A DNA stretch of 60,683 nucleotides, counting the filler. It is 4 parts of 4 records of this genome, joined end to end, with 100 filler letters (N's around TTAATTAATTAA, not from the genome) between each part and the next. Parts side by side here need not be neighbours in the genome. Positions count along the whole stretch, not along the records: positions 34,650 to 60,683 come from SRR31156797_16428; 3 more parts are not named here. The stretch is one strand, 5' to 3'. The notes under the pieces were generated by a model, which saw only the letters and a list, made by a program, of their open reading frames with translations, was not told where the DNA came from and ran no database searches. Positions 39,061 through 60,384 of the stretch are shown here, piece after piece. Positions within the stretch are counted from its first letter, which is position 1. The number at the start of each line of letters is the position of its first letter. The translations under genes were made by a program, and so were the position numbers.

Positions 39061-40827
39061 ATGAAACAGGTCTTATTACTTATCATATTTATATGTGGAG
39101 TAGTATCTTTAAGTGCCCAAAGCAGCGTACTTAAAGAAATTAATACAACACTCTCTCCTAAAAAAGAAACTAAAATCACAACTGATTCGGTTGTGGTTGA
39201 TTCCATTGTTAAAAATAATTACCAAAAGTTAAATGATTCTTTGTTAGTGTCTTACACTGATTCATTAAATCAACAAGATAAGATTACATTATCAGAGATT
39301 GACCAATCAATTGATATTGACACTCAAAAATATATACAAAGAATAATGGGGTCAAGGAAGCCACTAACTCCAAATAAACGAACTTCAGAAATTGAGTGGT
39401 CTAAAGAGTTTAATATTTCAAATGATGTTAGGTATGCAAAGAAACATCTTTTAGATACTAGCTTTAAGGTATTTGGATGGCATCCATATTGGATGGGAAA
39501 TGCATACAAAAGTTATAACTATTCTTTACTTTCATATATTTCTTATTTCTCATATGAAGTAAATCCCCAGACGGGTTTTTACAATACTATTCATAATTGG
39601 CGTAAAACTTCTATGGTTGATTCTGCACAAAAGTATAATTGTAAAGTGCTTTTAACCCTTACAAATTTTGGCTCAATTGAGAATAGAACATTATTAAATT
39701 CCACTGATGCTCAAAAGAATCTAATATCAACGGCAATTACCCTTGTTAGAGAGCGAAAAGCTGATGGGCTAACGGTTGATTTTGAGAGTGTTCCGGGAGA
39801 TATGAGGGTGAAGTTCACGAATTTTATTATAGCTCTTTCAACTAGCATGAAAGAGGAAAATGAAAATTTTGTTTTAAGTGTCGCATTGCCCGCAGTTGAT
39901 TTTGAGAAAGTATACGATTTTACCCAGATTGATAAGTACGTAGATTTGTATGTTATTATGGGGTATGAGTATTATGGAATGAATAGTAAATATGCTGGCC
40001 CTGTCGCTCCTCTTTCTGATGGTAATAAATGGGGAAGCTTTACACTTGAGAATTCTGTAAAGCAATACAAAAGTTTGGAGGTTAATAATAAGAAAATCTT
40101 ACTGGCGCTTCCATATTATGGAGCTGAGTGGGTTACAAGAGATCTTCGCGTTCCTTCAAAAACAAAATCTTTTATAAAATACTATTCATATAGCCAGGCC
40201 AAATCATTAACCAGAAATAAAATTGGAGATCTTGATATTGGCAGTGATAGTAAGTTTTATGCATATAGTGATAGATCTTTAAATTACAGACAACTTTGGT
40301 TTGAGGATTCTGCTACATTATCCAAAAAGTACGATTGGATAAAAGAACAGGAGTTAGGAGGAGTTGGAATTTGGGCATTGGGATATGATAATGGAAATGA
40401 CGAATTATGGAAATTATTAGCGGATAAGTTTGCCTATACGGAGGATCAAGTGAAAGAGATTGAGCGCAGTAAAAATAGACTGTCGGCTAAAAAGTTAATG
40501 ATGTGGGTTAAAAGACTAATTAAAAATCCCAAATCTGTAATTACCAAACCTAAAGCATTTTTAAGATTGTTTGGCGCGCTAGCAGGGGTGAGCTTGATTG
40601 GATTATTTATCATTATTAGGTATAGTAACAAATTCAAAAGAATATTTAAGCTAGTTCTAAAAGGTGGTATAGCAGGAATTATAATTATGACCATTGCTTT
40701 GATATTTATCTTTCTTAAATATTTTGAAGTAAGAGAATTACTATTTCTGATTGGTGGTTTTATGATTGGACTAATATTATTTTTTGCGTTTACGAGAAGG
40801 TATATAAGTGAGAAAGACCTTCCATAA
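39061..40827 (+). CDS. GH18 glycoside hydrolase with signal peptide and three C-terminal TM helices
   Basis: VFGWHPYW, DGLTVDFE, IMGYEY, AGPVAPL, LALPYYG, LGGVGIWALGYD; hydrophobic C-terminus. Confidence 0.85.
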   Translation: MKQVLLLIIFICGVVSLSAQSSVLKEINTTLSPKKETKITTDSVVVDSIVKNNYQKLNDSLLVSYTDSLNQQDKITLSEIDQSIDIDTQKYIQRIMGSRKPLTPNKRTSEIEWSKEFNISNDVRYAKKHLLDTSFKVFGWHPYWMGNAYKSYNYSLLSYISYFSYEVNPQTGFYNTIHNWRKTSMVDSAQKYNCKVLLTLTNFGSIENRTLLNSTDAQKNLISTAITLVRERKADGLTVDFESVPGDMRVKFTNFIIALSTSMKEENENFVLSVALPAVDFEKVYDFTQIDKYVDLYVIMGYEYYGMNSKYAGPVAPLSDGNKWGSFTLENSVKQYKSLEVNNKKILLALPYYGAEWVTRDLRVPSKTKSFIKYYSYSQAKSLTRNKIGDLDIGSDSKFYAYSDRSLNYRQLWFEDSATLSKKYDWIKEQELGGVGIWALGYDNGNDELWKLLADKFAYTEDQVKEIERSKNRLSAKKLMMWVKRLIKNPKSVITKPKAFLRLFGALAGVSLIGLFIIIRYSNKFKRIFKLVLKGGIAGIIIMTIALIFIFLKYFEVRELLFLIGGFMIGLILFFAFTRRYISEKDLP

Positions 40828-40842
40828 TAGGGTTTTAGAGGC

Positions 40843-41385
40843 ATGATTAATAGTGTAGTATCATTAATAGTGGAAAAATTAAATGAAAATCTGAATAACA
40901 GATTTTCTCAAACTTCGGATATTGTTGTACCTGGTACGCTCAATGACCTTGAGAATGAGAATAACTCTGTGTATCAGGATAAATTAATTTTGACATTATC
41001 GAATATAGAGCATGAAAGATTAGCTTTCAGTCAAAATCCACGATCTTATAACACACCAATTAATTTATATTTGTACATCTTAATATCTGCTAATTTTCAA
41101 CAAAGTAATTATGTGCAAGGATTAGGTATGTTGTCCGCAGTAATTAGTTTTTTCCAATATTTTGCTAATTGGAATCATTCTAATGCGCCGGGACTGGAAA
41201 GCAATCTTGAAAAACTAACATTTGAATTAGTAAACTTGAATATACAGGAATTAAGTCAGCTTTGGGGAGTACATGGGGGAAAGTATTTACCCTCTGTACT
41301 TTATAAAGTCAGGACTATAAGGATTTCTGAGGATATAGATGAGCCAGGATCATTAATGGGTGGTTTTGGCGCTGGAGTTTCATAA
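40843..41385 (+). CDS. CIS cap/tail terminator (DUF4255, Afp16/Pvc16-like)
   Basis: LSAVISFFQ, LSQLWGVHGGKYLPSVLYKVR; position at the head of the CIS operon. Confidence 0.88.
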   Translation: MINSVVSLIVEKLNENLNNRFSQTSDIVVPGTLNDLENENNSVYQDKLILTLSNIEHERLAFSQNPRSYNTPINLYLYILISANFQQSNYVQGLGMLSAVISFFQYFANWNHSNAPGLESNLEKLTFELVNLNIQELSQLWGVHGGKYLPSVLYKVRTIRISEDIDEPGSLMGGFGAGVS

Positions 41386-41441
41386 TTGGGGACTCATTTG
41401 AATAGGGATTTTTTTAAACAAGTCATGAAATCAGTTTAATT

Positions 41442-42488
41442 ATGATTAATCTGAAATTTCAGTTTAAGCCATTTATTTCAATGGCAGTACAGCATGAATA
41501 TTACCCAAAGGGAGAAAATAATGAAATGTATTTTCTCCCTACCCCTCGTACTGCATCTAATTTGGAGAAAATGGCAATGATGATTCGTCCTCAGGATGGT
41601 GCCCTTAAAGTACTTTTTGATGTTTCAAAAATGGAACTTTTATATCAAAGGCTTTCTCAGGCCACTGACAATGACCTCAAGTTATCATTTCTTTTATTTT
41701 CGCGAAATCCTTATTTCCTCAACTTTACCGATATTCCGGTAGAAATTCAAAATAAGGTTTTCTATTTTTCCAATGCTCATTTGAAAGACAACTTCAAAGG
41801 CCAATTGCATGAAAATGATTTTGTAGATGCTACGCAATTAACCTCTGTTAATCCTTTAGTTCTAGCGGATAATGAGGAAGGCAAAAACAAATATTCTTAT
41901 GCTGTTGATAGGGGGACTGAGGCAAATATTAATAAAATTCAACATGGCCGCCAAATTGATACAACAAAATTGCTAGATGGTTATTATAGAATTTTTGCCA
42001 ATGATAAGGAGTTAACATCCTTCATAAACCTGGGGGCTAAAACCAAGCAATCACCAATTGGGTTTGTGGATATTTTCCTCTCAGGAAAGATGAAAGCTAA
42101 AATTATGAAGTCTATTGATAATGGCGAACTTCCTGACATGAACTATAAGTTAAATTTCAATGCCAGATCAATATATTGGCGTTATAATGTTGTTCCATTG
42201 CATACGAAACGAATAAAGAATCTCAAGGTAAATTGCAATAAGGGAAACCCAAAGATTTCATTCAAAGGTCTCGGAGAATTTGAATATAACGAAAATCGCA
42301 TGCATTCATTCATTTCAGAGAAACCTGTGAAGTTTAATAAGCAATATGATTACGAGATTCAATTAAAAAAACAGGAAGGTGAAAGTGGTGGAAAGGTTCT
42401 CATGAAGAAATTAGCTTTTGCTTCATTTGATATAATAAAACCAATGAATGAAACTGATTATATGTCAGAAATATACGTGTATATATAA
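41442..42488 (+). CDS. CIS-associated protein between cap and sheath (possible cap adaptor)
   Basis: VQHEYY, NPYFLNFTD, FNARSIYWRY, SEIYVYI; position typical of Bacteroidota CIS loci. Confidence 0.6.
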   Translation: MINLKFQFKPFISMAVQHEYYPKGENNEMYFLPTPRTASNLEKMAMMIRPQDGALKVLFDVSKMELLYQRLSQATDNDLKLSFLLFSRNPYFLNFTDIPVEIQNKVFYFSNAHLKDNFKGQLHENDFVDATQLTSVNPLVLADNEEGKNKYSYAVDRGTEANINKIQHGRQIDTTKLLDGYYRIFANDKELTSFINLGAKTKQSPIGFVDIFLSGKMKAKIMKSIDNGELPDMNYKLNFNARSIYWRYNVVPLHTKRIKNLKVNCNKGNPKISFKGLGEFEYNENRMHSFISEKPVKFNKQYDYEIQLKKQEGESGGKVLMKKLAFASFDIIKPMNETDYMSEIYVYI

Positions 42489-42526
42489 GGTAAAACAGTT
42501 TATATAAATTTTAATTTTAATTACTT

Positions 42527-44131
42527 ATGTCACAAACATTAGCTACACCAGGGGTTTATATTGAAGAAAGGAATGCATTTCCTAATTCAGTAGCTGCAAT
42601 CCCTACAGCAGTACCCGCATTTATAGGGTATACAGAAAAAGTAGTCCGTGATGGTGAATCACTAATAAACAAACCTGTTCGAATATCATCATTTGCAGAG
42701 TTTGTTTCCATTTTCGGAGAAGGATTTAAAACAGGATTTGAAATTACAGAAGTTGAAAGTATTGAAAAAGGCTTTGATTTTTCTGTAGATGACAAATTCT
42801 ATACAGTAAAACAAGAGAAGGAATCTCGTTTTATATTTTTTGATGGCATCCGCATGTTTTTTGAAAATGGTGGTTCAGCTTGCTATATAGTTTCTGCAGG
42901 TTCATATACAACTACTGTTTCTAAATCAGCACCAGGAAAACCAGCGTCAAAAGACCCTAAAACAGGTAAAGAAACTCCTGCAACAGCAGGGAAAACTGTT
43001 GAGGAAATAAAAATCAATGAGATTTCGAAAAAAGCACTATCAGATGGTATTACGGCACTTGTTGCTGAAGAAGAACCAACTATGTTGGCTATTCCTGAAG
43101 CAGTGATGCTTGACGAAGCTGATTGTTTTGCGTTACAGCAAGAAATGTTATTGCACTGTGGATTCAAGATGCAGAACAGATTTGCTTTGATTGATGTATA
43201 CAATGGATATCAGAAGCGAACTTATGATAAAAATGATGTTGTCACTAGATTCAGAGAAGGAATTGGATCAAATTTCTTAGCATTTAGTGCAGCTTATTAT
43301 CCATATGTGAATGCCGCTGTTGTTCAAAAAGAAGAGGTTGATGTGGCTAATATTGTTAACCCTGAATTACTAAATACTTTATTATCAAAAGAAGCTGATA
43401 AGCTTTATGATAATGCCAAAAAAGCTGATGAAGCTAAAAATGAAATCAAAAAGATATTAGATGAAAATGCTGATATTGCTTCATTAACACAAACTTTAAA
43501 TACCATTAGCCCTGCATTTAAGAAAATAATGAGTGCTGTATTAAGGAAGCTGAATATACTTCCTCCAAGTGCAGCTATGGCAGGTGCATTAAGTATGGTA
43601 GATAACTCACGCGGTGTATGGAAAGCTCCTGCTAACCTAAGTCTGGCGTCAGTTGTATCCCCGGTAGTGAATTTAACCAACGAAGACCAGGAAGATCTTA
43701 ACGTAACAGTATCAGGTAAATCAATAAATGCAATCCGTTCATTTGTAGGGCAGGGAACGCTTGTTTGGGGCGCTCGCACATTGGATGGCAACAGCCAGGA
43801 TTGGAAATACATTAACGTGCGTCGTACAATGATTTTCATTGAGCAATCTGTTAAGGCTGCAGCTAAAGCATACGTTTATGAGCCTAATACTGCTGGTACA
43901 TGGACCCTTGTAAGAAGTATGATTAGTTCTTTTTTAACTACAGTTTGGAAACAAGGTGGATTAGCTGGGCTAACTCCTTCCGATGCATTTAATGTTGAAG
44001 TTGGTTTAGGTTCAACGATGACACCAAATGATATTTTAGATGGAATAATGAACGTGACAGTGAAAGTTGCTGTAACACGACCAGCTGAATTTATCGTAAT
44101 TACTTTCCAGCAAAAAATGCAGGAATCATAA
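42527..44131 (+). CDS. CIS contractile sheath protein (Afp2/3/4-like)
   Basis: TPGVYIEE, TAVPAFIGYTE, FFENGG, RGVWKAPAN, VWGARTL, YINVRR, RPAEFI. Confidence 0.96.
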   Translation: MSQTLATPGVYIEERNAFPNSVAAIPTAVPAFIGYTEKVVRDGESLINKPVRISSFAEFVSIFGEGFKTGFEITEVESIEKGFDFSVDDKFYTVKQEKESRFIFFDGIRMFFENGGSACYIVSAGSYTTTVSKSAPGKPASKDPKTGKETPATAGKTVEEIKINEISKKALSDGITALVAEEEPTMLAIPEAVMLDEADCFALQQEMLLHCGFKMQNRFALIDVYNGYQKRTYDKNDVVTRFREGIGSNFLAFSAAYYPYVNAAVVQKEEVDVANIVNPELLNTLLSKEADKLYDNAKKADEAKNEIKKILDENADIASLTQTLNTISPAFKKIMSAVLRKLNILPPSAAMAGALSMVDNSRGVWKAPANLSLASVVSPVVNLTNEDQEDLNVTVSGKSINAIRSFVGQGTLVWGARTLDGNSQDWKYINVRRTMIFIEQSVKAAAKAYVYEPNTAGTWTLVRSMISSFLTTVWKQGGLAGLTPSDAFNVEVGLGSTMTPNDILDGIMNVTVKVAVTRPAEFIVITFQQKMQES

Positions 44132-44178
44132 TTGATTGAAACATTAACAAAATTGTAAAATATTAACACAGAATAATT

Positions 44179-44616
44179 ATGGCTGATGAATTATGGCCCA
44201 TACCAAAGTTTCATTTTAAAGTTGAATGGGCAGGAAACGATATAGGTTTTCAAGAAGTCTCCGGATTAGAAATGGAGACACAATTTATTGAATACAGAGC
44301 AGGAGATGATCCTACTTTTTTAACTCAAAAAATTCCAGGATTGAAAAAGCATGGTAACATTACCTTGAAAAAAGGTGTTTATGCCGGCGATTCTGCTTTC
44401 TGGGAGTGGTTTAGCGATGTGCAAACTAACCCGGATCGTCGTGAAGAGGTTATTATTCAATTATTGGATGAAGAAGAAAATCCTGTCGTTACATGGACTG
44501 TTACCAATGCATTTCCTGTAAAGGTTTCTGGTCCTGATTTAAAATCAGATGCTAACGAAATAGCTATTGAGTCTATTGAACTAGCGCATGAAGGATTTGA
44601 AGTTGAATATGCATAA
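44179..44616 (+). CDS. CIS inner tube protein (Afp1, T4 gp19-like)
   Basis: FQEVSGL, IEYRAG, NITLKKG, IAIESIELAHEG. Confidence 0.95.
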   Translation: MADELWPIPKFHFKVEWAGNDIGFQEVSGLEMETQFIEYRAGDDPTFLTQKIPGLKKHGNITLKKGVYAGDSAFWEWFSDVQTNPDRREEVIIQLLDEEENPVVTWTVTNAFPVKVSGPDLKSDANEIAIESIELAHEGFEVEYA

Positions 44617-44640
44617 TGACTTAATGTCATGAAACAGCTT

Positions 44641-44672
44641 TTATCCAGAGGACCGAAAGGTTCTCTGGATAA
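44641..44672 (+). promoter_or_regulatory. 14-bp stem with GAAA tetraloop between the tube genes
   Basis: TTATCCAGAGGACC-GAAA-GGTTCTCTGGATAA (one G-U pair), no U tract. Confidence 0.7.
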
Positions 44673-44690
44673 TTAAAAGGAGTTTTCCAT

Positions 44691-45182
44691 ATGTCAATTA
44701 GTTTTAATATAACCTCAGGAAATAGCAGTGATGCGCCAGAACCAGCTCTAGGTTTTAGGTATAGGGTTAGTATTTCGGGTATATATGATACTGCTGAGAT
44801 GGGGTTTAGTGAAATATCTGGATTAACTACAGAACTTGAAACTGAGCAAGTGTTTGCAGGGGGCGAAAATAATTTTGTATATAATCTACCTAAACAGGTT
44901 AAAAGCACACCACTTGTATTAAAGCGAGGTTTTTTTAATTCTAATTCCAGTATTGCACAATGGATCAATGATGTTTTATCAAATGGATTTCCAAGTAATG
45001 TCGATGCAAAGGACGTTGTAATACAATTGATAAATGAGCAGAATGATCCAATTATCACCTGGACACTCCGTAATGCCTATCCAACAAAATGGGAAGTAAG
45101 TGGATTCAATGCCATGGAAAATAAGATGGTAGTGGAATCAATTACTTTGAATTATTCAAGTTTCGAATTGGAATTTAATTAG
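44691..45182 (+). CDS. CIS second tube protein (Afp5-like)
   Basis: FSEISGL, GGENNFVYNLP, LVLKRG, NAYPTKW. Confidence 0.92.
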   Translation: MSISFNITSGNSSDAPEPALGFRYRVSISGIYDTAEMGFSEISGLTTELETEQVFAGGENNFVYNLPKQVKSTPLVLKRGFFNSNSSIAQWINDVLSNGFPSNVDAKDVVIQLINEQNDPIITWTLRNAYPTKWEVSGFNAMENKMVVESITLNYSSFELEFN

Positions 45183-45184: not shown

Positions 45185-45355
45185 ATGCCTGTTGAAATAA
45201 AAGAATTATTAGTTCGGTTCAATGTAACAGAAAACAGTCAGGGAGCTAAAAATGCGCCTGATAGCAATCAGATTAACCTACCAACCTACAAGAAAATTGT
45301 ACGCGATTGTACCGAGCAGGTTTTAAGAACATTAGAGCGTAAAAGTGAAAGGTAA
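45185..45355 (+). CDS. Small CIS protein (Afp6/DUF5908-like, 56 aa); not in the ORF track
   Basis: Hand translation MPVEIKELLVRFNV...IVRDCTEQVLRTLERKSER; fills the gap between tube2 and the LysM gene. Confidence 0.85.
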   Translation: MPVEIKELLVRFNVTENSQGAKNAPDSNQINLPTYKKIVRDCTEQVLRTLERKSER

Positions 45356-45369: not shown

Positions 45370-46074
45370 ATGAATTACTTAACGATATTTGGTTATGATG
45401 CAGAAGGGGACGGTCCGGCAGAAAAGGCTTTTAATGAAAATGATCCTTTCAAAGCTCAACTAAATCCAAACGCTATAAAGCTTTCGCAGACAGTTACCTA
45501 TACGGCAAATCCTGGCGAGTCGACAGATTCTCAGATCATTACTCATCAAAAGTTTGGGGGTGTTCCTGCGCCGACATTGAATTTGGAGTTATTACTTGAC
45601 AGTACGGGGGCTATTCCATCAGAAGGTAACGATATGGCCGTAGCTGATAGAGTAAAGAAATTTCAGGAAACTTGCTTTTTCTATAGAGGTGAAAAGCACG
45701 AAACACCTTATGTGAAGCTTCTTTGGAATGGCAATTCATTATTTAAGTATAACGATCATGCTTATTTTGCACGAATCAAAAGTTTCGATGTAAACTATAC
45801 CCTATTTTCACCTGAGGGTGAGCCTTTGAGAGCAAAAATTACTGCTACTTTTCTTGGTACTATGGATACCAAAACGCAGGCAAAGATTATGGACAAGCAA
45901 TCGCCGGATTTAACCCATGTTGTAACGGTAAAAGCTGGAGATACTTTACCAATGCTTTGCGAAAGAATATATGGTTCAAGGCAAATGTTTCATGAGGTAG
46001 CCAGAGTAAATAATTTATTAAGTTTTAGATATATAAAACCGGGTACAGAACTGGTTTTTCCTCCGATTAAATAA
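45370..46074 (+). CDS. CIS tube initiator/hub with LysM domain (Afp7-like)
   Basis: LNPN, YTLFSPEGEPLRA, SPDLTHVVTVKAGDTLPMLCERIYG. Confidence 0.92.
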   Translation: MNYLTIFGYDAEGDGPAEKAFNENDPFKAQLNPNAIKLSQTVTYTANPGESTDSQIITHQKFGGVPAPTLNLELLLDSTGAIPSEGNDMAVADRVKKFQETCFFYRGEKHETPYVKLLWNGNSLFKYNDHAYFARIKSFDVNYTLFSPEGEPLRAKITATFLGTMDTKTQAKIMDKQSPDLTHVVTVKAGDTLPMLCERIYGSRQMFHEVARVNNLLSFRYIKPGTELVFPPIK

Positions 46075-46079: not shown

Positions 46080-47867
46080 ATGGCAGACAAACTTAAAGAT
46101 ATTGTAAAAAGTCCTATAACCTATACTATTTCATGCAATGGGTCTGAAATACCAGGTGAATATAGCGTAGAGTCTGTCATAGTCTTAAAAGAAGTAAACA
46201 AGGTTTCATCCGCATTTATTCAAGTGGCAGATGGAGGCTATTCAGACAGTAGTGAATTTTCAATAAGTGATTCCGGGAACTTTAATCCCGGCACTGAAAT
46301 AGAAATATCTGCCGGTTATGCTTCAGAAGAGGAGGTTATTTTTAAGGGTATTGTAATGAGGCATGGTTTGCGCATTGTGAGGGGTAGGTTTTCACTTGAT
46401 ATTGAATGTAAAGATGTGGCTGTAAAAGCTACGGTAGGTCGCAAAAATAAGATTTTTGAAGCCAAACTTGATAGTGATATTATATCGGAAGTGTTGGGAG
46501 AGTATTCTGATTTGGCCATCAACGTAGAGGCAACAAATTACGAACATCCGGAATTATTACAAAGCTATATATCCGATTGGGATTTTGTGATTCAAAGGGC
46601 TGATGTGAATGGAATGATTTTACTGAATTCAGATGGTGAAATTGAAATTAAAAAGCCAGAAGCAGGTTCTCCTGTACTTGATTTATCACCTGACGGAGAT
46701 TTGAAATCATTTGATGCATATATTGACGCAAGAAATGTGGTTAGTGCAGTAAAAGGAGTTTCCTGGGATATGGATAATCAGGAAATAATAGAAGCCAACT
46801 CAAATGCTCCTGCTTCAAATGATGTAGGAAATATTTCGTCAGATGATCTAGCCGGGGTAATTGGTTTAGAGGAGTTTTTATTGAGCACAACTGCAAATAC
46901 GCCAATGGAGGTTCTAACTGAATGGGCCTCAGCTCAACTTACCAAATCAGAATGGTCTAAGGTAAGGGGAAAAATTGCTATTCAGGGTTACAATAGAATA
47001 TTGCCCGGTGATACTATCAACCTTGAGGGCTTTAGTGAGCAGTTCAATGGTACAGTATTTATCTCATCTGTGGAGCATATTATTGAAGGAGGAGATTTTA
47101 CTACTGAGCTTGAATTAGGATTGTCTGCAAATTGGTATGCTGAAGAGAAACCTAACTTTTATGCACCCCCTGCATCAGGATTAATTCCACCTGTTAATGG
47201 ATTATATATAGGAGTTGTTGAGCAAATTCATGAGGATGAAAATGGTCAGTATCGTATAAAGGTTAAAATGCCAACTCTTCAATCAGAGACATTGACTTTA
47301 TGGGCAAGAATGACAACGCTTTATGCAACTGCAGAAGCCGGTATTTTCTTTTATCCGGAGGTTGGTGATGAAGTTATTGTGGGCTTTTTGAATCAGGATG
47401 CTCAAAGTCCGGTTGTTTTAGGATCTGTACATAATAAAATTAATGTTCCACCGGAAGAGCCGGCAGAAGAGAACTTTATCAAAAAGATTACGACAAAAGA
47501 GAAACTTCAAATCTCCTTTGATGAAGAAAATAAGGCTATTATAGTAGAAACTCCTGAGGGAAATATGATCACGATGAATGATACAGATGGCAATATTAGC
47601 ATTGCTGATATGAATGATAATTTAGTTGAGTTGTCCGCAGATGGAGTCAAGGTAGAAAGTGCCGGAGATATTATTTTGAGTGCTCAGGGCAATATCGAAC
47701 TTGCAGCTCAGGGTGATATAACCCTGGGTGCAACTGGTGATGTGGGCGTAGAGGGAATGAATATAGAAAATAAAGGAACTGCTGCTTTTAAAGCTGAAGG
47801 TGCCAATTGTGAAGTGAATGGTTCGGCACAAACAGTTATTAAAGGTGGTATGGTAATGATAAATTAA
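46080..47867 (+). CDS. CIS spike protein, VgrG/Afp8-like
   Basis: SDWDFVIQRADVNG, GLYIGVV, RIKVKMP, WARM, PEVGDEVIVGF, IKGGMVMIN. Confidence 0.93.
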   Translation: MADKLKDIVKSPITYTISCNGSEIPGEYSVESVIVLKEVNKVSSAFIQVADGGYSDSSEFSISDSGNFNPGTEIEISAGYASEEEVIFKGIVMRHGLRIVRGRFSLDIECKDVAVKATVGRKNKIFEAKLDSDIISEVLGEYSDLAINVEATNYEHPELLQSYISDWDFVIQRADVNGMILLNSDGEIEIKKPEAGSPVLDLSPDGDLKSFDAYIDARNVVSAVKGVSWDMDNQEIIEANSNAPASNDVGNISSDDLAGVIGLEEFLLSTTANTPMEVLTEWASAQLTKSEWSKVRGKIAIQGYNRILPGDTINLEGFSEQFNGTVFISSVEHIIEGGDFTTELELGLSANWYAEEKPNFYAPPASGLIPPVNGLYIGVVEQIHEDENGQYRIKVKMPTLQSETLTLWARMTTLYATAEAGIFFYPEVGDEVIVGFLNQDAQSPVVLGSVHNKINVPPEEPAEENFIKKITTKEKLQISFDEENKAIIVETPEGNMITMNDTDGNISIADMNDNLVELSADGVKVESAGDIILSAQGNIELAAQGDITLGATGDVGVEGMNIENKGTAAFKAEGANCEVNGSAQTVIKGGMVMIN

Positions 47868-47872: not shown

Positions 47873-48172
47873 ATGAGTCTAGCAGCAAGAGTTGGTGATA
47901 TGCATACTTGTCCGATGGTTACTCCTGGAACACCACCAGTACCTCATGTTGGTGGAACGATAATGCCTCCAGGAGAACCGACAGTAATGATTGGGGGTGT
48001 CCCTGCTGCTAGAGTAGGAGATATGGCTACTTGTGTTGGTCCGCCTGATTCAATAGTTAAAGGTTCTGCAACAGTTTTGATTGGAGGAATGCCTGCTGCA
48101 AGAATGGGAGATTCCACAGCACATGGTGGCGCCATAGCATTAGGTTGTCCAACAGTAATGATTGGAGGTTAA
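47873..48172 (+). CDS. PAAR spike-tip protein
   Basis: LAARVGD, PAARVGD, PAARMGD repeats with His/Cys metal ligands. Confidence 0.96.
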   Translation: MSLAARVGDMHTCPMVTPGTPPVPHVGGTIMPPGEPTVMIGGVPAARVGDMATCVGPPDSIVKGSATVLIGGMPAARMGDSTAHGGAIALGCPTVMIGG

Positions 48173-48179
48173 AAGCAAA

Positions 48180-53173: not shown

Positions 53174-56047
53174 ATGAATCAGCCAGGATTTTTAGATAGG
53201 AAAAAGCAGGTCGATCCTGCTTTGGACTTTAATTTTCTACGTAAAGAAGGTATAAGTATCATACAGGAATTGACAGGCTCGTTTTGGACAGATTTTAACC
53301 TGCACGATCCCGGTGTCACAATTCTTGAACAGTTGTGTTATGCATTGACTGAATTGTCTTTCCGAACTGATTATGATATTGAACAGTTGTTGTTTAAAGA
53401 AGGGAAATCTGATTTGCCTTTTTATAAGCCAGAAGATATTCTTACTAATAATCCGCTAACAACCAGCGATTTAAGGAAGATATTTTTAGACGAAATTCCA
53501 GAACTTAAAAATATATGGTTTGAACCGGTTATGCACCACGATGCAGGTTTTAATGGACTTTATCGCATATTGGTTGATACTAGTTTGATTAATGCTTCAA
53601 ATGAGGAAGAAGAACAGGTCAAACAAAAAATTGAGCTTATTTACAGTAAGTATCGGAACGTTTGTGAGGATATTTTTGAGATTAAAATTTTAGAACAACT
53701 GCCTATTACCATTTGTGGTGAGATTGAGACCGACGGCTTAGTAGAATTAGCTGAAATTATGGCCAATATCTATTTTATAGTAGAGCAAAACATAAATCCT
53801 GAGGTACAATTTCATGCATTGTCGGAGCTTATCGAAAAAGGTAAAAAGTATCATGAGATTTTTGATGGCCCAAAACTAAATCATGGATTTATTTTAAGTG
53901 AAGAATTGATAGATCAACCGGACAGCATTGTAGTATCAGATGTAGTAAAGTTGATTATGCAAGTTGATGGTGTGGTGAGCGTGAAAAACCTTCATTTGGA
54001 GTGGGATGGCCAGCAGTATTATAATCAATTGAATATTCCAAAAGGCAAAATCCCAAAGTTTATCCATAGTGAGTTAGTATCTGATGCAGAGAGTTATACC
54101 ATCAAATTCTATAAGGGAAATTTGGTTTACAACGGGTTTAAATCTGATGCATTTCGTAAGTATTTAAATGAATTGGTTTCAGGCCATAAAAAATCATACC
54201 GTGTAAGCGGTTCAACATTTGAAACACCTGATATTCAGCAAGGCCTTAACTTCGAAGAATACTTTTCTATTCAAAATCATTTCCCCGCTATTTATGGTGT
54301 TGGAGAGGAGGGTTTGCCTAATAAACCTACAGTTGAAAGGAAAGCAAAGGCCAATCAGTTGAAAGGCTATTTGATGATTTTTGAGCAGTTTTTGGCCAAT
54401 TATCTTTCGCAGCTGGCTCACTTTAAAGAATTGCTCTCCATTCATAAGCGTTTGAATAATACTTATTTTATTCAGCATCTGGATAATGTACCCAATGCAG
54501 ATCAATTTTATATTGATGAGGAATCTACAATTAAGGATGCTTATCTTGAATTGGAAGATGTGCCCCAAAAGTATAAAGAAGGATTAAAACTTTTGAATAA
54601 GCACTTTGATGATTTTATTGATCGAAAAAATAGAATGCTTGATTTCTTGTTAGCTGTTCATGGTGAGTCATTTACAAAATATTCGCTAACTCAGTTCAAC
54701 TATTACTTTGGAGATACAGATTTTAAACGCTTTCAAATTATATGTAAATCAGCACTGTTGCAGCAATTGGCTAATGTTAATTATAATCGGGCTTCAGGTA
54801 TTGACTATTTTGCTGATGCAATTGAAGGTACTGGTCTTGAAACCAGGCTGCGCATAGTTTTGGGGCTGGGGTTGGAAGAGAATGAGGATGGAAGAATAAT
54901 TGTAAATCAGGGTAAAAGTGTCTTTGATAGCCTAAAAAAATATAAGCTTAAACTATTGGCAGCAGACTCTCGTTCAGCAGCCATGAAAAAGTGGCTATCA
55001 GAAAGCAATTTAGAACTGATTAACCTTAAGCAAGAACAGGTTGATAATCAGTTTGATTATATCGATGATGAAGACCTTGATAAAATTGAAAATCCTGATA
55101 AAGCATTACTGGATTTGACATTGCCATACCGCATCGGATATTTGACTACTGATTTTTTAGTTACCGGTATTGATCTTATGAATTATAAGGCTGGTCCTAT
55201 ATCAGATAATAAAGCAGAAATGGCACTAATTCATCAAAATAATGAAAAGGAGCCCTGGAAATTGATTGGTATATTTAAATCAGAGCAAGAATTATTACAA
55301 GCATTAAAGCTTTTACATAAAATGCTTGTACAAATCAATATGGATACCGAACAGGTGCATTTAGTGGAGCATGTGATGCTGCGTCCTAACTCAGATGAGC
55401 TTAAATATGGTATTTACATAAAAGATGAGCATGGTAAGTACTTGCTAAAAAGTAAGAAACAGTATGCATTGGGCGAACGCGAGGAGGTATTGGGAAAACT
55501 GGCCGGAGGTTTCTCTGATTACAATAATTTCACTGTTACAGCAGATGAAAACCGCGATATGAATATTATTTTTAAAGTGCCTGATTCGGACCTTGAGTTT
55601 ACAAGTATTCAACCAAATATATCTGTGGAGGAGACGCATACACAAATGGAAAATCTTCATCGATTCCTTGCAGATAAAGATAAAGAAACACCATATCAGG
55701 ATAAAACCGGGTTTTATATTCAATACGGCGAGGGTGACCGGGATATTCCGGATACTTATTATACATATAAAGTCAGTTTGGTTTTTCCTTCCTGGACAGC
55801 ACGATTTAGCAATAAAGAGTTTCGTTCAATTGTCCGTGATGTGGTGTGGGAACAAAAACCGGCAATGGTTTACCCTGATCTACATTGGTTGTCACCAAAT
55901 GAAATGAAAACTTTCGAGAAGCTTCAACATAAATGTATTTCTTCTCGAAAGAAGAAAGGTGAGATTAGGGATAAAAACCAGTTTTCAAAAGAAAATGGTA
56001 GTGCTGACCTTGCTAATTTTCTATATGAAAAGTATAAAGACAGCTAA
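53174..56047 (+). CDS. CIS baseplate protein (Afp12-like), 957 aa
   Basis: LRKEG, WTDFNLHDPGVTILEQLCYALTEL, RNVCED, SIQNHFPAIYGVG, QLKGYL, HLVEHVMLRP. Confidence 0.9.
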   Translation: MNQPGFLDRKKQVDPALDFNFLRKEGISIIQELTGSFWTDFNLHDPGVTILEQLCYALTELSFRTDYDIEQLLFKEGKSDLPFYKPEDILTNNPLTTSDLRKIFLDEIPELKNIWFEPVMHHDAGFNGLYRILVDTSLINASNEEEEQVKQKIELIYSKYRNVCEDIFEIKILEQLPITICGEIETDGLVELAEIMANIYFIVEQNINPEVQFHALSELIEKGKKYHEIFDGPKLNHGFILSEELIDQPDSIVVSDVVKLIMQVDGVVSVKNLHLEWDGQQYYNQLNIPKGKIPKFIHSELVSDAESYTIKFYKGNLVYNGFKSDAFRKYLNELVSGHKKSYRVSGSTFETPDIQQGLNFEEYFSIQNHFPAIYGVGEEGLPNKPTVERKAKANQLKGYLMIFEQFLANYLSQLAHFKELLSIHKRLNNTYFIQHLDNVPNADQFYIDEESTIKDAYLELEDVPQKYKEGLKLLNKHFDDFIDRKNRMLDFLLAVHGESFTKYSLTQFNYYFGDTDFKRFQIICKSALLQQLANVNYNRASGIDYFADAIEGTGLETRLRIVLGLGLEENEDGRIIVNQGKSVFDSLKKYKLKLLAADSRSAAMKKWLSESNLELINLKQEQVDNQFDYIDDEDLDKIENPDKALLDLTLPYRIGYLTTDFLVTGIDLMNYKAGPISDNKAEMALIHQNNEKEPWKLIGIFKSEQELLQALKLLHKMLVQINMDTEQVHLVEHVMLRPNSDELKYGIYIKDEHGKYLLKSKKQYALGEREEVLGKLAGGFSDYNNFTVTADENRDMNIIFKVPDSDLEFTSIQPNISVEETHTQMENLHRFLADKDKETPYQDKTGFYIQYGEGDRDIPDTYYTYKVSLVFPSWTARFSNKEFRSIVRDVVWEQKPAMVYPDLHWLSPNEMKTFEKLQHKCISSRKKKGEIRDKNQFSKENGSADLANFLYEKYKDS

Positions 56048-56058
56048 TTTTATTTGAA

Positions 56059-59000
56059 ATGGTTAAGCATTCCCTCCATACCATTGAACGTTTTGCCTTA
56101 GATGTAAATTATTATGAGGTAGAATCTGCCAAAAGAGCCCAATCAAGTATATCTGCATTGGCTTCTAATCAATTGTCAGCTGCCTTTGAAAAGGTTTGTG
56201 ATAAATACGGTGAAGAAGTAATATTCAAATTGCGCCGCATCCAAATGGATTTGGGAGATATACCTGAAGATATTTTGGAAAGTGAATTGATTTTACGTTT
56301 TGAGAATAAGTTGTCTAAAACACTGGAAGCGCTGAAAAGAGGAGAGTACATGCTAAGCGGTGTGGAAGGTTTTGAATTAAAGCAAATAGACGAAAGTCTT
56401 ATCGAAGGATTAATCCATTTTTTGAATTATGGTACTTTGCCCTATTACGTAGAGCAAAATTTTGGAAATGAATCTATTAAGGAGCTTTTTACTAAGATAG
56501 AAAAGTCAAAGATCCCTGTTTTCCGTAAAGAACTGCGCAACTCAATTACTTCACTGATGGCCCAAAGGAGAATAGCTCATCTATTCCCTGGTGATGAGTT
56601 GTTGCAGTTCTTTCTTTTTATGTTACCAAAAGATCAGGCTGAGGCATTAGGGAGCATTTTTAATGATTTTGTTACGCTGGTTGAACTAGCTCCTGATACA
56701 TTCATTAAGCGGGATTTGATGATTGTTTGTCGTGAATTTTTTGTGAGGGAAGTGTTAAATAGTTCTCAAAACTTTATGTCAATTAGTTCATCACAATTAT
56801 TGGGCGATTTAATGGCATATCTTGAGAATGATAAAAATATTCTCCCCGAAAAATGGATCCCCGAAATAATGATTCAAAAAAATGCTCAAGGAAATTTAAA
56901 TGGAAGCTTAGATAAGCTAATAACAAAAACTAGTGACTACTATGTAAAATATCTTAAGGGATCGAAGTCTTCTAAATACTTGCGATTCGGAAATGATATT
57001 TTTCAAAAACAAAACCAGGTTATGGAAATGAAAGAATTGGCAGAAAAAGAGACTGTGCAAGTTAAGTCTCAATTAAATAAATTCGTAAAGGACCTTGTTG
57101 AGCAAGTGAAGCATTTTTATAAAACTGTAGAAGAAGAAAGAATTGAGACTGTAATACTTGGAATTGCAGATGAAATTTTGCCATCTAAAAATATTAATGC
57201 ACAAAACTTTGAATATTGGGCAGAGGCCATAAGCAGCGAAGTAAAAAGGTTGTTTGGTGTATCCCTTGAAACACAATATTATAAATCGTCCAACGAAACA
57301 AAGTTTACCGATGCAGTTGGTAATTTAACCAGGAAAAGTTCAGATGTAAATAGCTCTGTGGCTCTGGCATATTGGGCAATGTTTTTGGCAGCTGGAATTA
57401 CACCTTTTAAACGATTGTATGTTGAGCCAAAATCTAAGCTGGTAACAATCTTTTCTGATCTAATAAATAATGAACCCGAATCTGCAGCATGGCAATTGAA
57501 ACAACAAGTGAATGATCAGAATGTAATGATTATTGCATGGTGGTTTAAAGAATCACTTGGAGAAGAATTATTTAGGTTTTATAAATCAAATGTAAGCTAT
57601 AACTTATCATCCAGGTTAGAAAACGATTTTAGCTACGCTTCGGTTTTAGTGAGCGTATTTTTTGCTACAGGTAATTTTCCTTGGCCCGAATTAAATAATC
57701 ATGGACAGGCCGAGCTAATTCAATTTGTGAATGAGTTTATATCTGATTCAGATAATTACTTGTTGGAGCAAATTGCATTGGAATATAATCTTTTTGACAA
57801 TGTGGAGAAATTAGAAAAAGTCCTCTCAATGATTGTAATTGAGGCTGCTAAAAAGTTGATTCAGATCCGGAAGAACTTGATTGAAAAAGGACTAATTGAT
57901 TCAACTGTTTTTAATAAACATGAATCCTTAGGGCATGCTGTTATAGATAAAAAACATAAACTAAATAATTTGTCTAAGCCTGATATAGCAGAAAATGATA
58001 CCTCATTAGAATTAGAAGATAGTAAATCACAAAATTTAAATGGTAAAGAAACGAAGCAGGATAAATTTGAGCATACGAAAAAAGATGCTGATGGGGATGT
58101 GAATGTTTCTTTTACTCATGACGAAGCTGAAAATGGAGAAGAAATAAAGGATAACATAAAGTCGGAGTTGAGTCAGGATGTGCCAAATGCAGAAGTACTG
58201 ATTAAGCAAGAATACGAACGTTGGATGAATCTGAGTACAAGTAAGATTTTAGATGAAATTGCCTATGATATATTGCACTTTATGGGCGCTTCTTTTTACG
58301 ATGTGTTACCAATTCAAAATAGGGCGGATTTAATTTTTAGAAAAATTTCCGTATCTGCTGGGATGTCCTATTATCAAACAGCTGCGCTTTTGGTTGACTT
58401 GCCCAGAAGAGAGATGACAAAACTACTTGAGTGGTTTGATATAGAGCAGCGAGACTATATTAAAAAATTGGTAAAAAGCTATCGTTCGCGATTTGTAAGC
58501 ATGGCTGAAGATATTCGGAGATCAGAAGAAGAAGCACTGGAAGAAGCTCCACTAAATTTGAATGAGGATCAGACTTTGTTTGTCAAAAACGCAGGAATGG
58601 TGCTATTGAATCCATATTTGGTGCGACTTTTTAAACGATTTGATTTGGTCGAGGGTAAGAATTTCAAAGATACTGCTGCAAAAGAAAAGGGTGTGTATTT
58701 GCTTCAATATTTGACAAGTAAAAGTACAGAGCCTGAAGAGTTTGAGCTGTCATTGAATAAAATATTATGCGGAATTCCATTGGGATTACCATTAAAAACG
58801 GAAGTAAATCTATCAGAAGAGGAAAAAGAGATATGTGACGAATTATTAGACGCAATGATAAAAAATTGGGGAGTATTAAAAAATACCAGTGCAGATGGCT
58901 TGCGCACCTCATTTTTGATGAGAGATGGCGTTCTGCGCAAAGAAGCCACAGGATGGAAACTACAAATTGAGAAAAAGGTATATGACATTCTATTGGAGAA

Positions 59001-59076
59001 ATTACCATGGGGTTACAGTATGATTCAATTGCCATGGATGGAATTACCATTATACACCGAATGGGAAACAAAATGA
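56059..59076 (+). CDS. CIS tape-measure protein (Afp14-like), 1005 aa
   Basis: N-terminal IQMDLGDI and FLNYGTLP; C-terminal NAGMVLLNPYL, LNKILCG, NTSADGLRTSFLMRDG, DILLEKLPW. Confidence 0.88.
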   Translation: MVKHSLHTIERFALDVNYYEVESAKRAQSSISALASNQLSAAFEKVCDKYGEEVIFKLRRIQMDLGDIPEDILESELILRFENKLSKTLEALKRGEYMLSGVEGFELKQIDESLIEGLIHFLNYGTLPYYVEQNFGNESIKELFTKIEKSKIPVFRKELRNSITSLMAQRRIAHLFPGDELLQFFLFMLPKDQAEALGSIFNDFVTLVELAPDTFIKRDLMIVCREFFVREVLNSSQNFMSISSSQLLGDLMAYLENDKNILPEKWIPEIMIQKNAQGNLNGSLDKLITKTSDYYVKYLKGSKSSKYLRFGNDIFQKQNQVMEMKELAEKETVQVKSQLNKFVKDLVEQVKHFYKTVEEERIETVILGIADEILPSKNINAQNFEYWAEAISSEVKRLFGVSLETQYYKSSNETKFTDAVGNLTRKSSDVNSSVALAYWAMFLAAGITPFKRLYVEPKSKLVTIFSDLINNEPESAAWQLKQQVNDQNVMIIAWWFKESLGEELFRFYKSNVSYNLSSRLENDFSYASVLVSVFFATGNFPWPELNNHGQAELIQFVNEFISDSDNYLLEQIALEYNLFDNVEKLEKVLSMIVIEAAKKLIQIRKNLIEKGLIDSTVFNKHESLGHAVIDKKHKLNNLSKPDIAENDTSLELEDSKSQNLNGKETKQDKFEHTKKDADGDVNVSFTHDEAENGEEIKDNIKSELSQDVPNAEVLIKQEYERWMNLSTSKILDEIAYDILHFMGASFYDVLPIQNRADLIFRKISVSAGMSYYQTAALLVDLPRREMTKLLEWFDIEQRDYIKKLVKSYRSRFVSMAEDIRRSEEEALEEAPLNLNEDQTLFVKNAGMVLLNPYLVRLFKRFDLVEGKNFKDTAAKEKGVYLLQYLTSKSTEPEEFELSLNKILCGIPLGLPLKTEVNLSEEEKEICDELLDAMIKNWGVLKNTSADGLRTSFLMRDGVLRKEATGWKLQIEKKVYDILLEKLPWGYSMIQLPWMELPLYTEWETK

Positions 59077-59172
59077 TTGATAATAATATTGGAAATGCTA
59101 CGCAGAAACGCACGATCGTACGTATCGTAAATAAAAGCAATTCCTGTATGAAATTTTATAATAAATAAAGTA

Positions 59173-60384
59173 ATGAAAACAAAAATATTTATTGCAACAG
59201 CGCTATTAATAATTTCAGGGACATTCTATAGTTGCGAAGAAGTCACAGTTGATAAGCCTGAAAAGTTGGATTATTTTATGAAGTTGTATGGAAATTATTT
59301 TAGTGACAGACTCAACGGTATTGATATTACGTCTGATGAGAAAATATTGATAGCCGGCGATCGCACTATAGAAGAGGGAGAGATTGAAGGCTGGTTGATC
59401 ATAACTGATGAAGAGGGCATGGTAGCCCATGAGCGGACATACAATTTTGAAAATGATGTAAGGGTGTTTGGAGCTCATGCACGTGAAAATGCATATTTTG
59501 TAGCCTGCCAACTTAATCCGGTAGGAGTTCATGATGGTTGGGTCTTAGTTTACAATGAAAATATGGATATGACCGACTCTCTTATTTTTAGTGTCGATAC
59601 AGAAACAATTAAAGGTGTTGAGTTTCTGGAAGAATCTACAGAGGTTCGGTTTCTATTGCATGGCAACAATGGAACAGCCGATGAAATATTGATTTATGAG
59701 ATTACAGCTAGTAATAATGTGCAATTGCTTAGTCGCAATGAAATGTATGGAGAGTTGCAAGGAAGATTGTACGTTTTTGAAGCAGATAATAACACACTTT
59801 ATTTAGCTGGAAGTGTTCCTGAAGTGGCCGGACAAACAGGTCCAAATGCCAGAAGTAATATAATGGTTTCTTGTTTACAAGATGATAACCTGGTTTGGTC
59901 TTATAGTCATGGAGAATACGATGTATCTGAGCTTTGTGCAGGAATAGTTTATGTTGATGGTCAATTATTAGTTGGAGGTTCCCAAAAAGAATCGGAGGAA
60001 CATTATTTTGCCGATGAACTTTTTATTTATGAAATAAATGAAAGCGGCCAATTGGAAAATACACAAAGTGTAGCACTCAATGGCCAAACCCGTGCATATG
60101 AGATGGTGCTTAACGGAAATGATGAGTTAGTTTGGACAGGTGAACGTAAAATTGATGAGCGGAATATTCGTATTTTTATGGCCAGGACAACCTTAAATGG
60201 CCAGATTTTATTGGAAACTGAATACGGTGACCGGGGTTACAGTAGCGGCCGTAGAATAATAGGTCTTCCGGGAATTGATCGAGGCTTTTTGCTTAGCGGA
60301 ATCCTCTCAACCTCCGGTGTTAGCGAAGATGCTAATGATGTGCTCGTGATAAAAGTAGATAAAAACGGAGACTGGATATATTGA
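59173..60384 (+). CDS. Lipoprotein with beta-propeller-like repeats
   Basis: Lipobox FYS-C followed by acidic residues; repeats such as LIITDEEG, MARTTLNG, VIKVDKNG. Confidence 0.7.
   Translation: MKTKIFIATALLIISGTFYSCEEVTVDKPEKLDYFMKLYGNYFSDRLNGIDITSDEKILIAGDRTIEEGEIEGWLIITDEEGMVAHERTYNFENDVRVFGAHARENAYFVACQLNPVGVHDGWVLVYNENMDMTDSLIFSVDTETIKGVEFLEESTEVRFLLHGNNGTADEILIYEITASNNVQLLSRNEMYGELQGRLYVFEADNNTLYLAGSVPEVAGQTGPNARSNIMVSCLQDDNLVWSYSHGEYDVSELCAGIVYVDGQLLVGGSQKESEEHYFADELFIYEINESGQLENTQSVALNGQTRAYEMVLNGNDELVWTGERKIDERNIRIFMARTTLNGQILLETEYGDRGYSSGRRIIGLPGIDRGFLLSGILSTSGVSEDANDVLVIKVDKNGDWIY

Follow-up and report, generated by a model that had tools for sequence, protein, structure and literature searches.

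A 60.7-kb stretch of DNA from an uncultured marine Bacteroidales bacterium, referred to in its entirety as the window, carries the operon of a contractile injection system (CIS) at positions 39061-60384. The locus is a genuine phage-tail-like contractile injection machine with a complete CIS core. It probably belongs to clade Ib, being of the same kind, as known here from its genes, as SalCIS of Salmonella enterica subsp. salamae (Ejaz et al., Nat Commun 2026, PMC13266070; PDB 9r9h, 9r9i, 9r9n, 9rce) and the type VI secretion systems of subtype iv (T6SS-iv). What is new is a monophyletic Bacteroidales subclade of such loci that possesses three extra envelope or regulatory genes, together with an ATPase/toxin module unlinked from the structural operon.

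The operon comprises 16 co-oriented open reading frames (ORFs) with intergenic gaps of -11 to 96 nt, and the conserved block to which it belongs counts 19 genes in all, a divergent upstream pair included. The genes of the operon are as follows.

39061..40827 (+), Cis20-like membrane protein with a glycoside hydrolase family 18 domain (GH18-TM), 588 aa; Glyco_hydro_18 E 2e-33, signal segment, three C-terminal transmembrane (TM) helices
40843..41385 (+), cap or tube terminator (Cis16a, Afp16-like); Pvc16_N E 8e-28
41442..42488 (+), probable cap adaptor (Cis16b-like), 348 aa; weak PDB matches, between cap and sheath
42527..44131 (+), contractile sheath (Cis2), 534 aa; Phage_sheath_1C E 6e-14
44179..44616 (+), inner tube protein (probably Cis1); Phage_T4_gp19 E 3e-47
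44691..45182 (+), second tube-family protein (probably the Cis5 adaptor); Phage_T4_gp19 E 3e-38
45185..45355 (+), Cis6/Afp6-like small protein, 56 aa; DUF5908 E 2e-15
45370..46074 (+), tube initiator or baseplate hub (Cis7); CIS_tube E 3e-33
46080..47867 (+), VgrG-like spike (Cis8), no toxin extension; Phage_base_V E 6e-20, TIGR01646 E 9e-45
47873..48172 (+), PAAR spike tip (Cis10), 99 aa, no extension; PAAR_motif E 4e-26
48162..48611 (+), gp25-like baseplate wedge (Cis9); GPW_gp25 E 1.5e-23
48633..52376 (+), Cis11 (gp6/Baseplate_J) with a long N-terminal cage-forming extension, 1247 aa; PDB sequence matches
52406..53155 (+), Cis13-like miniature fiber protein, putatively trimeric, 249 aa; N-terminal match to All3316, fiber fold
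53174..56047 (+), Cis12 (gp6/7-like baseplate protein), 957 aa; PDB sequence matches
56059..59076 (+), tape measure protein (Cis14), 1005 aa; CIS_TMP E 5e-102
59173..60384 (+), lipoprotein, 403 aa, last gene of the operon; lipobox ...FYSC

Every item of the Afp/PVC-like superfamily core set was matched in this one cluster by searches of Pfam, NCBIfam, and PDB sequences, namely the sheath, tube, tube initiator, VgrG-PAAR spike, gp25, Cis11/Cis12 baseplate, tape measure, and cap. An initial annotation of the sequence had assigned the locus to the Afp/PVC/AlgoCIS/T6SS-iv class of systems, and these matches bear it out. The same annotation had counted 13 genes in 40843-59076; all 13 of the classes that it named lie where it had put them, but the interval holds 14 genes, the one passed over being the 348-aa gene at 41442-42488. 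As it had also maintained, families for capsid, terminase, portal, TssB/C, and TssJLM proteins were without a match among the 47 largest ORFs of the window, and the genes flanking the core are as described (GH18-TM at 39061-40827, the lipoprotein at 59173-60384, and a divergent multi-TM protein at 34895-38134). PHROG contributed only baseplate-wedge matches, for Cis11, and a single match of the GH18 protein to a family of unknown function, and Rfam and tRNA scans of the window gave no match.

The best solved match for the sheath is SalCis2 (9r9h, E 1.9e-156, 525 bits), followed by Alg2 of AlgoCIS (E 1e-98, 334 bits), Cis2 of the thylakoid-anchored CIS (tCIS) of Anabaena (E 1e-90, 308 bits), and the PVC and Afp sheaths (E 1e-53 or weaker). 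Its alignment with SalCis2 covers residues 5-131 and 165-534, and the two proteins have the C-terminal end ...ITFQQKMQES in common. Residues 132-164 (42920-43018) form a Lys/Pro/Thr-rich insert of ~33 residues with no SalCis2 counterpart in that alignment. Three solved proteins match Cis11 about equally well, namely SalCis11 (E 5e-109, 369 bits), which is narrowly the best, All3317 of tCIS (E 1.4e-104, 354 bits), and Alg11 (E 1e-100, 341 bits); colinearity with All3317 extends over residues 12-1175, the N-terminal half included. Cis12 is best matched by Alg12 (E 1.7e-79, 271 bits), ahead of All3315 of tCIS (E 4e-67) and SalCis12 (E 7e-46, 160 bits), and Afp12 and Pvc12 are also among its matches.

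To place the locus among its relatives, species-representative genomes were scanned with Cis11; the counts given here and below come from tblastn searches and fetched flanks, and the related genomes are the five designated G001-G005. The scan yielded ten loci, nine of them in metagenome-assembled genomes (MAGs) of Bacteroidales/Bacteroidota at 66-84% identity and the tenth a distant Saprospiraceae locus (L010), with the closest Cis11 relative found in a Salinivirgaceae MAG. The 19-gene block is kept in all five related Bacteroidales genomes, and the flanks compared beyond the block differ. The envelope genes are thus more than casual neighbors, as had been proposed from the window itself: GH18-TM, the lipoprotein, and the divergent pair encoding proteins of 207 and 1079 aa stay with the core in 5/5 genomes. 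A tree built from the last 200 residues of the sheath in 18 loci, with no named reference systems included, recovers all seven window-type loci as a single clade (100/100) nested within a larger one of 16 (100/100), from which the locus of genome G026 and the Saprospiraceae locus are excluded. Of 201 genomes sampled from this order, CIS sheath matches at E <= 1e-30 were found in 16 and only G002 was close, and the 249-aa fiber was found in six of 401 genomes sampled from the phylum. The supplementary operon lists of the SalCIS paper (Supplementary Fig. 14, Data 2 of PMC13266070) may already include similar loci.

The remaining core genes vary in how well they are conserved. Cap identity among window-type loci is 58-88%, and the 348-aa protein that follows, which has no Pfam match, is 46-69% identical in relatives; its assignment as cap adaptor comes from weak PDB matches to All3326 of tCIS (E 8e-4) and to 'SalCis16b - cap' (E 8e-3). 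The first tube protein (44179-44616) is 84-93% identical in relatives and the second (44691-45182) is variable (34-88%); from their positions, they are probably Cis1 and Cis5, respectively. The Cis6-like ORF, corresponding to the spike plug of SalCIS (PMC13266070), has tblastn matches at the equivalent position in G026 and L010. No Pfam LysM match was seen for the Cis7 hub, the 'LysM' name stemming from the initial annotation and the SalCIS paper. Relatives of the gp25-like protein align only from residue 4-8 on, and translation probably begins at an ATG that lies a few codons into the ORF, past the PAAR stop codon. Finally, the tape measure is the least conserved gene of the core, with most relatives aligning only at its ends. 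In tblastn comparisons it was mostly just the C-terminal 170-310 residues that aligned, beside neighboring genes that are 60-95% identical. Because of this poor conservation, particle length may differ between close relatives.

The operon opens with a protein that resembles SalCis20, which is reported to possess a Sec signal, a SleL-like hydrolase domain (template 4s3j), and three TM helices (PMC13266070). GH18-TM has these three features as well as the structural template: a Sec-type signal at the N-terminus, a GH18 domain of the SleL/YaaH/YdhD spore-cortex/peptidoglycan type, and TM segments predicted by a hydropathy script at residues 501-519, 537-555, and 560-578. The GH18 domain was matched in PDB sequence searches to YdhD (E 1e-21), a Desulfitobacterium GH18 protein, YaaH, and SleL. 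A Foldseek search with the AlphaFold2 (AF2) model, which has a predicted local distance difference test (pLDDT) score of 64 and is good in the catalytic domain, returned SleL entries 4s3k and 4s3j at the top (E 4e-21). SleL and YaaH are N-acetylglucosaminidases. The SalCIS paper calls SleL an amidase (PMC13266070). The catalytic D-x-E occurs as DGLTVDFE at residue 235 and is kept in seven of eight aligned sequences, and the domain is, as predicted from its sequence, a GH18 (beta/alpha)8 fold of the peptidoglycan-hydrolase type with D-x-E retained. The likeness to SalCis20 is one of architecture and fold, not of sequence; SalCis20 was neither among the best 60 of 81 PDB sequence matches of GH18-TM nor in the Foldseek matches, and when the C-terminal TM part was used as query against PDB sequences, the matches were at chance level only.

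GH18-TM stands at the start of the operon in 6/6 window-type loci that reach that far, where its identity is 54-82%. Among 11 more distant Bacteroidota loci that were fetched, there are seven in which a GH18 gene lies within or next to the CIS cluster, and all six of the complete proteins possess C-terminal TM helices. Moreover, the conserved cytoplasmic tail of GH18-TM ends in ...EKDLP (window 40795-40827), and a C-terminal ...(E/K)DLP after the last TM helix is common to the GH18 proteins of the window-type loci, G341, and G392; several proteins of the distant loci also end in this manner. This terminus may serve as a cytoplasmic docking motif. In the literature, a search for 'Cis20' with contractile injection turned up the SalCIS paper only, and nothing relevant on GH18 or chitinase with contractile injection was found among the matches listed.

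Another protein with a possible role at the envelope is the 249-aa fiber, whose gene lies between those of Cis11 and Cis12, an arrangement also seen in tCIS. Its likeness to Cis13 consists of this position, a fiber fold, and a weak match of residues 1-39 to the tCIS Cis13 protein All3316 (E 0.03), and it is a putative trimer. A total of 317 homologs of ~245 aa were found, those with a record coming from Bacteroidota and several being labeled 'adhesin'. The AF2 model (pLDDT 80) shows helices at the N-terminus, a shaft formed by a beta-helix, and a tip folded as a beta-sandwich, and Foldseek matched it to C-terminal domains of Bdellovibrio fibers (E 8e-6) and to phage tailspikes. In VIA-align comparisons, the beta-helix segment resembled the Bdellovibrio fiber Bd3182 (Z 8.8, rmsd 2.0, 73 residues aligned), and the tip resembled a baseplate protein of phage KP1 (Z 8.9), tailspike C-terminal domains (Z 7.7), and, more weakly, the PllA lectin (Z 5.7). 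The modeled fold would mark the protein as a fiber and is compatible with a partner in the cell's own membrane complex or on a target cell. Among window-type loci it is 75-95% identical, which is about as conserved as the sheath (79-94%) and above GH18-TM, the cap, and the lipoprotein, and such conservation is more in keeping with a partner that stays constant than with a receptor that varies. Across families, identity ranges from 49 to 95% among 120 matches listed. For comparison, SalCis13 is a predicted trimer with homologues in Amoebophilus and Aureispira (PMC13266070), and Aasi_0556/Cis13 of T6SS-iv and its gut Bacteroidales homologues have been described as possible inner-membrane anchors (PMC12210884).

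The genes that set the subclade apart are the lipoprotein gene at the end of the operon and the divergent pair upstream, which with the region between the two units are arranged as follows.

34895..38134 (-), TLC-like/HEAT/cNMP membrane protein, 1079 aa; HEAT_2 E 8e-9, ~11-12 N-terminal TM helices (TLC/MFS-like), putative divergent cNMP-binding-like domain at the C-terminus
38155..38778 (-), secreted protein, 207 aa; signal peptide, a conserved core, and a tail rich in Lys and Ala; leads the divergent unit of two genes
38779..39060 (no strand), divergent intergenic region, 282 bp, AT-rich; presumed bidirectional promoter region

The lipoprotein gene begins 96 nt past the tape measure gene and follows it in 7/7 window-type loci that reach it. 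The lipobox Cys is kept in the window protein and in the three orthologs inspected, and identity among window-type loci is 31-72%. Each of the five related genomes has one clear copy, with a marginal second match in G003 (E 1.6e-4). No PDB sequence match was found at E up to 10; its fold is possibly a beta-propeller, a lead provided by Pfam and the atlas of language-model clusters. The 207-aa protein has an N-terminal hydrophobic segment and no Pfam, NCBIfam, or PHROG match, and its orthologs (46-82% identity) lie upstream of the 1079-aa gene in 5/5 genomes and on metagenome contig L045. In the 1079-aa protein, HEAT_2 is above the cut-off and there is no TLC match; cNMP_binding was detected below threshold in two of four orthologs (E 0.0015, 0.0045). 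Its nearest atlas clusters carry HEAT_2, cNMP_binding, and TLC with scores of 0.96-0.98, which serves as a lead only. An ortholog adjoins the CIS in 5/5 window-type genomes at 42-60% identity, and none of five genomes with more distant CIS loci has a homolog. The protein is accordingly linked to the CIS through synteny and is a candidate regulator or inner-membrane platform. On contig L045 (5073 bp), the 207-aa/1079-aa pair (44-48% identity) lies behind a histidine-kinase fragment and not beside GH18. A literature search found nothing joining contractile injection, cyclic nucleotide-binding, and HEAT repeat.

As for signals bordering the operon, the intergenic region contains one match to the Bacteroidota -7 motif TAnnTTTG, at 38839-38846 (-). 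The motif is not enriched across the window (74 found vs 81 expected), and therefore no promoter claim is based on it. A terminator scan 3' of the operon gave 0 sites; by eye, a 4-bp GC hairpin with a T-run is seen just past the last stop codon, and the window ends 299 non-coding bases beyond the operon.

Another distinguishing trait of the subclade is the location of its ATPase and toxin genes. The initial annotation had held that the accessory genes are envelope proteins rather than toxins, and this did not survive comparison with relatives. Among the four relatives with sequence past the lipoprotein gene, two (G001 and G004) have a Cis15-type ATPase directly downstream, a convergent gene of 475 aa, and then eCIS_core (DUF4157) toxin genes. 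Moreover, PF13699 (DUF4157/eCIS_core) was detected in four of the five related genomes, the fifth being a 3.4-Mb MAG. The notion that the system has no toxins was thus rejected; its toxin-less appearance is an artefact of where the window ends and of toxin genes that lie at other places in the genome. In G003, an ATPase of 65% identity is found on a small contig, and in G002 the ATPase and DUF4157 genes occur only in a second, different CIS locus. The ATPase/toxin module is detachable from the structural operon, and most of the more distant loci, 11 of which were fetched, encode their ATPase in cis. Within the window, no HExxH motif was present in ORFs of at least 80 aa beyond 34 kb. In SalCIS, the Cis15 ATPase adjoins two HEXXH effectors, one with DUF4157, and in the SalCIS-type cluster a SalCgo2-like (HEXXH/DUF4157-type) effector is reported in every operon (PMC13266070).

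Several other observations were made on cargo genes in the relatives. G004 has a further DUF4157 fragment beyond its 1079-aa gene. On contig G003:C98 (L025 8849-10797), a toxin that joins eCIS_core (DUF4157) to Ntox23 is followed by a small gene, among housekeeping genes and far from the only CIS locus of G003; the small gene might encode immunity. The second CIS locus of G002, the closest relative genome, is located on G002:C297 (L024 and upstream). Its sheath has 631 aa and its tape measure is split; the locus also possesses a GH18-TM of its own (609 aa), a gene resembling Cis13 (40% identical), and genes for an AAA ATPase and a DUF4157 protein.

Taken with SalCIS as the model, these genes probably specify a machine attached to the cell envelope in the manner of SalCIS and T6SS-iv. 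SalCIS particles are close to the inner membrane in minicells, release was not detected, and a distinct membrane-associated CIS cluster has been proposed (PMC13266070). By analogy, the sheath and tube would assemble in the cytoplasm on the baseplate, with the Cis11 cage and six Cis13-like trimers facing the inner membrane. The Cis20-like protein would reside in that membrane, where its periplasmic SleL-type GH18 domain could open the peptidoglycan locally and its short conserved cytoplasmic loop and tail would offer a docking point for the baseplate. On contraction, the tube would be pushed together with VgrG and PAAR across the envelope of the producing cell and into a neighbor. The cargo would be DUF4157/eCIS_core toxins, loaded with the aid of the Cis15 AAA ATPase, both encoded outside the window as in the relatives. 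We infer all of these steps, namely membrane attachment, peptidoglycan opening, tail docking, and the loading of toxins encoded elsewhere, from the parallel with SalCIS. The initial annotation had also leaned toward a cell-associated particle; this mode is plausible and matches what was reported for SalCIS, so the idea is largely in print (PMC13266070).

A number of points weigh against this assignment. The proposed mode of action is borrowed from SalCIS, whose authors could themselves not resolve the anchoring and describe the activation conditions as unknown (PMC13266070). The best solved relative of Cis12 is from AlgoCIS, a released system, and not from SalCIS, while Cis11 is about equally close to SalCIS, tCIS, and AlgoCIS. 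The likenesses to SalCis20 and SalCis13 rest on architecture and a shared template, not on direct comparison. In the 249-aa protein, the hydropathy script found no TM segment, and its lectin-like tip would also suit the binding of a target. The conserved block has no Cis15/Afp15 AAA+ ATPase, the AAA domains of the window being limited to a sigma-54 regulator, and PF13699 has no match in the window. Finally, L045, the sole contig from the metagenome scan with the 1079-aa protein, argues against strict linkage of that gene to the CIS.

Some of these same points would suit a released extracellular CIS (eCIS) like AlgoCIS, assembling freely in the cytoplasm, with GH18 as an endolysin-like lysis or release factor and the fiber binding a conserved target glycan. 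The Alg12 match of Cis12 (E 1.7e-79) favors it, as do the peptidoglycan-hydrolase type of the GH18 domain with its catalytic D-x-E, the fiber tip's resemblance to tailspike C-terminal domains (Z 7.7) and PllA-type lectins (Z 5.7) under the database name 'adhesin', and the tape measure, Cis6, and cap, which are present as in eCIS loci. However, a signal peptide with three TM helices suits constant export or tethering and not holin-timed release, no holin or spanin genes were seen in Pfam or NCBIfam matches, and release was not detected for SalCIS, the nearest relative (PMC13266070). The fiber, moreover, is short and unusually conserved, unlike the fast-varying fibers of eCIS (PMC12923769), and a released particle is on the whole unlikely. 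An intracellular, stress-triggered system in the manner of tCIS or the Streptomyces CIS, firing in or at the producer's membrane to cause cell death or ghost cells, is very unlikely. It draws on the end-to-end alignment of Cis11 with its tCIS counterpart (E 1.4e-104), on the fiber N-terminus and cap adaptor with best or co-best matches in tCIS, and on the neighboring cNMP-binding-like membrane protein, which could act as a stress sensor. Against it, there are no thylakoids and the TM anchor of the tCIS Cis13 is absent. The window Cis12 is also much shorter than that of tCIS (957 vs 1335 aa), so a comparable Cis12 extension looks unlikely. Furthermore, relatives carry DUF4157 toxins, one with Ntox23 and a possible immunity gene, which fits antagonism between cells.

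The part played by the three subclade-specific genes is a separate matter. The lipoprotein and the 207-aa and 1079-aa proteins probably add envelope-side or regulatory functions to the envelope-attached machine, as their synteny with it suggests. It is possible, if somewhat doubtful, that they are instead passengers kept since the common ancestor of closely related genomes and no parts of the machine. Their linkage is seen as synteny inside one clade of relatives, none of the three occurs in the 11 more distant loci or in L010, a paralog of the 1079-aa protein (22-24% identical) is found elsewhere in 4/5 genomes, and the pair on L045 adjoins a histidine-kinase fragment in place of GH18. Yet the block is intact in 5/5 genomes when the upstream flanks of the window, G001, and G002 have no homologous ORFs, and when the downstream flanks of G001 and G004 are alike but unlike those of G002 and G003. 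It has stayed intact although the 1079-aa protein is just 42-60% identical, and the lipoprotein gene lies within the operon, 96 nt past the tape measure, always there as one clear copy per genome. At the other extreme, GH18-TM with its three helices, the 12-TM 1079-aa protein, the 207-aa protein, and the lipoprotein could form a joint envelope-spanning docking or gating complex in which the cNMP-like domain couples firing or assembly to a nucleotide signal. This is decidedly unlikely; if true, it would provide protein candidates for a trans-envelope complex of the kind imaged in Aureispira.

The locus extends the membrane-associated type of CIS found in a Salmonella subspecies to environmental Bacteroidota, in which the GH18 membrane protein and the short fiber recur in many loci. 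This distribution would fit a Bacteroidota source from which the Salmonella system was acquired by transfer. These loci also provide a wider comparative set for how such machines attach to and cross the envelope, and the three conserved genes are concrete candidates for parts of the machine at the envelope. The separation of the ATPase/toxin module from the structural operon offers a natural test of whether Cis15 is needed in cis. A cell-associated CIS with a peptidoglycan-hydrolase anchor is already published in SalCIS, and nothing is overturned here.

Beyond the CIS, the window is ordinary Bacteroidota chromosome, with DnaJ/GrpE, UvrD, a DUF4290 protein, and a CHU_C protein of the type IX secretion system (T9SS). 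Positions 16000-26000 have a GC content of 0.45-0.49, as compared with 0.28-0.40 elsewhere in the window, and carry genes of anaerobe type, including a Rex-like repressor, DUF3788, GrpB, DUF3786 with an FeS domain, MoCF_biosynth, FmdE, and a sigma-54 response regulator; this segment may be a foreign island or a chimera of assembly or binning. At 9077-13024, there are two tandem TonB_C paralogs, and after them genes for a LuxR-type regulator and for a PKD/CHU_C protein of the T9SS-sorted kind.

Among known systems, T6SS subtype iv is reportedly that of Amoebophilus asiaticus, as defined by Bock and colleagues in 2017. The T6SS-iv of Amoebophilus asiaticus and Aureispira resemble the window locus as clade-Ib CIS of Bacteroidota in which a tape measure accompanies the Cis11 cage and TssJLM is absent. 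The Saprospiraceae locus L010 shares 26-47% identity with the window in its core proteins and 67% in PAAR, with no tblastn match for the 249-aa fiber or GH18. The Aureispira system is anchored in the inner membrane with a trans-envelope complex, and the component proteins of that complex and its antennae go unnamed in the relevant passages of the report (Lien et al., bioRxiv 10.1101/2024.01.29.577165).

The tCIS of Anabaena PCC 7120 (PMC8894136; PDB 7b5h, 7b5i) has the same gene order, Cis11-Cis13-Cis12, and a colinear Cis11, and its cap adaptor (All3326) and Cis13 N-terminus (All3316) are detectable by sequence. It differs in its thylakoid anchoring through a Cis13 TM helix and a Cis12 extension, whereas the Cis13-like protein here has no TM helix, and in its Cis19 crown, for which no match was seen among the PDB matches listed. 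AlgoCIS of Algoriphagus machipongonensis (PMC8894135; PDB 7aeb and others) is likewise of clade Ib and provides the best Cis12 match and strong sheath and Cis11 matches. In contrast to the window locus, it is released and has a 692-aa sheath and an Ig-like fiber, Alg19; the relevant passages of that report make no mention of a GH18 membrane protein, and 'hydrolase' occurs 0 times in its main text.

The closest comparison is with SalCIS, an 18-ORF bidirectional operon of clade Ib (PMC13266070). By the test that the initial annotation had set for itself, near identity in content to a characterized CIS, the locus comes close to such a system. The lipoprotein, 207-aa, and 1079-aa genes have no SalCIS counterpart, and the host phylum differs. 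The window also carries no Cis15 ATPase and no HEXXH/DUF4157 cargo genes, which relatives carry nearby or elsewhere, and GH18-TM has 588 aa in place of 775. Window residues 533-662 of Cis11 align to SalCis11 residues 620-749, an offset of ~87, which suggests that the SalCis11-specific insert known as domain IV (residues 419-549) is shorter or absent here. In content, however, the two are close, the GH18 protein having been published as SalCis20. Both have the two-protein cap (Cis16a/b), the Cis6 plug, the Cis11 cage, a short Cis13-like protein encoded among or close to the baseplate genes, a Cis20-type membrane protein with a signal, a SleL-like GH18 domain, and three TM helices, and a divergent gene arrangement. 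In all, 15 of the 18 SalCIS gene products have counterparts in the window, those of Cis13 and Cis20 being recognized by position, architecture, and fold and not by sequence.

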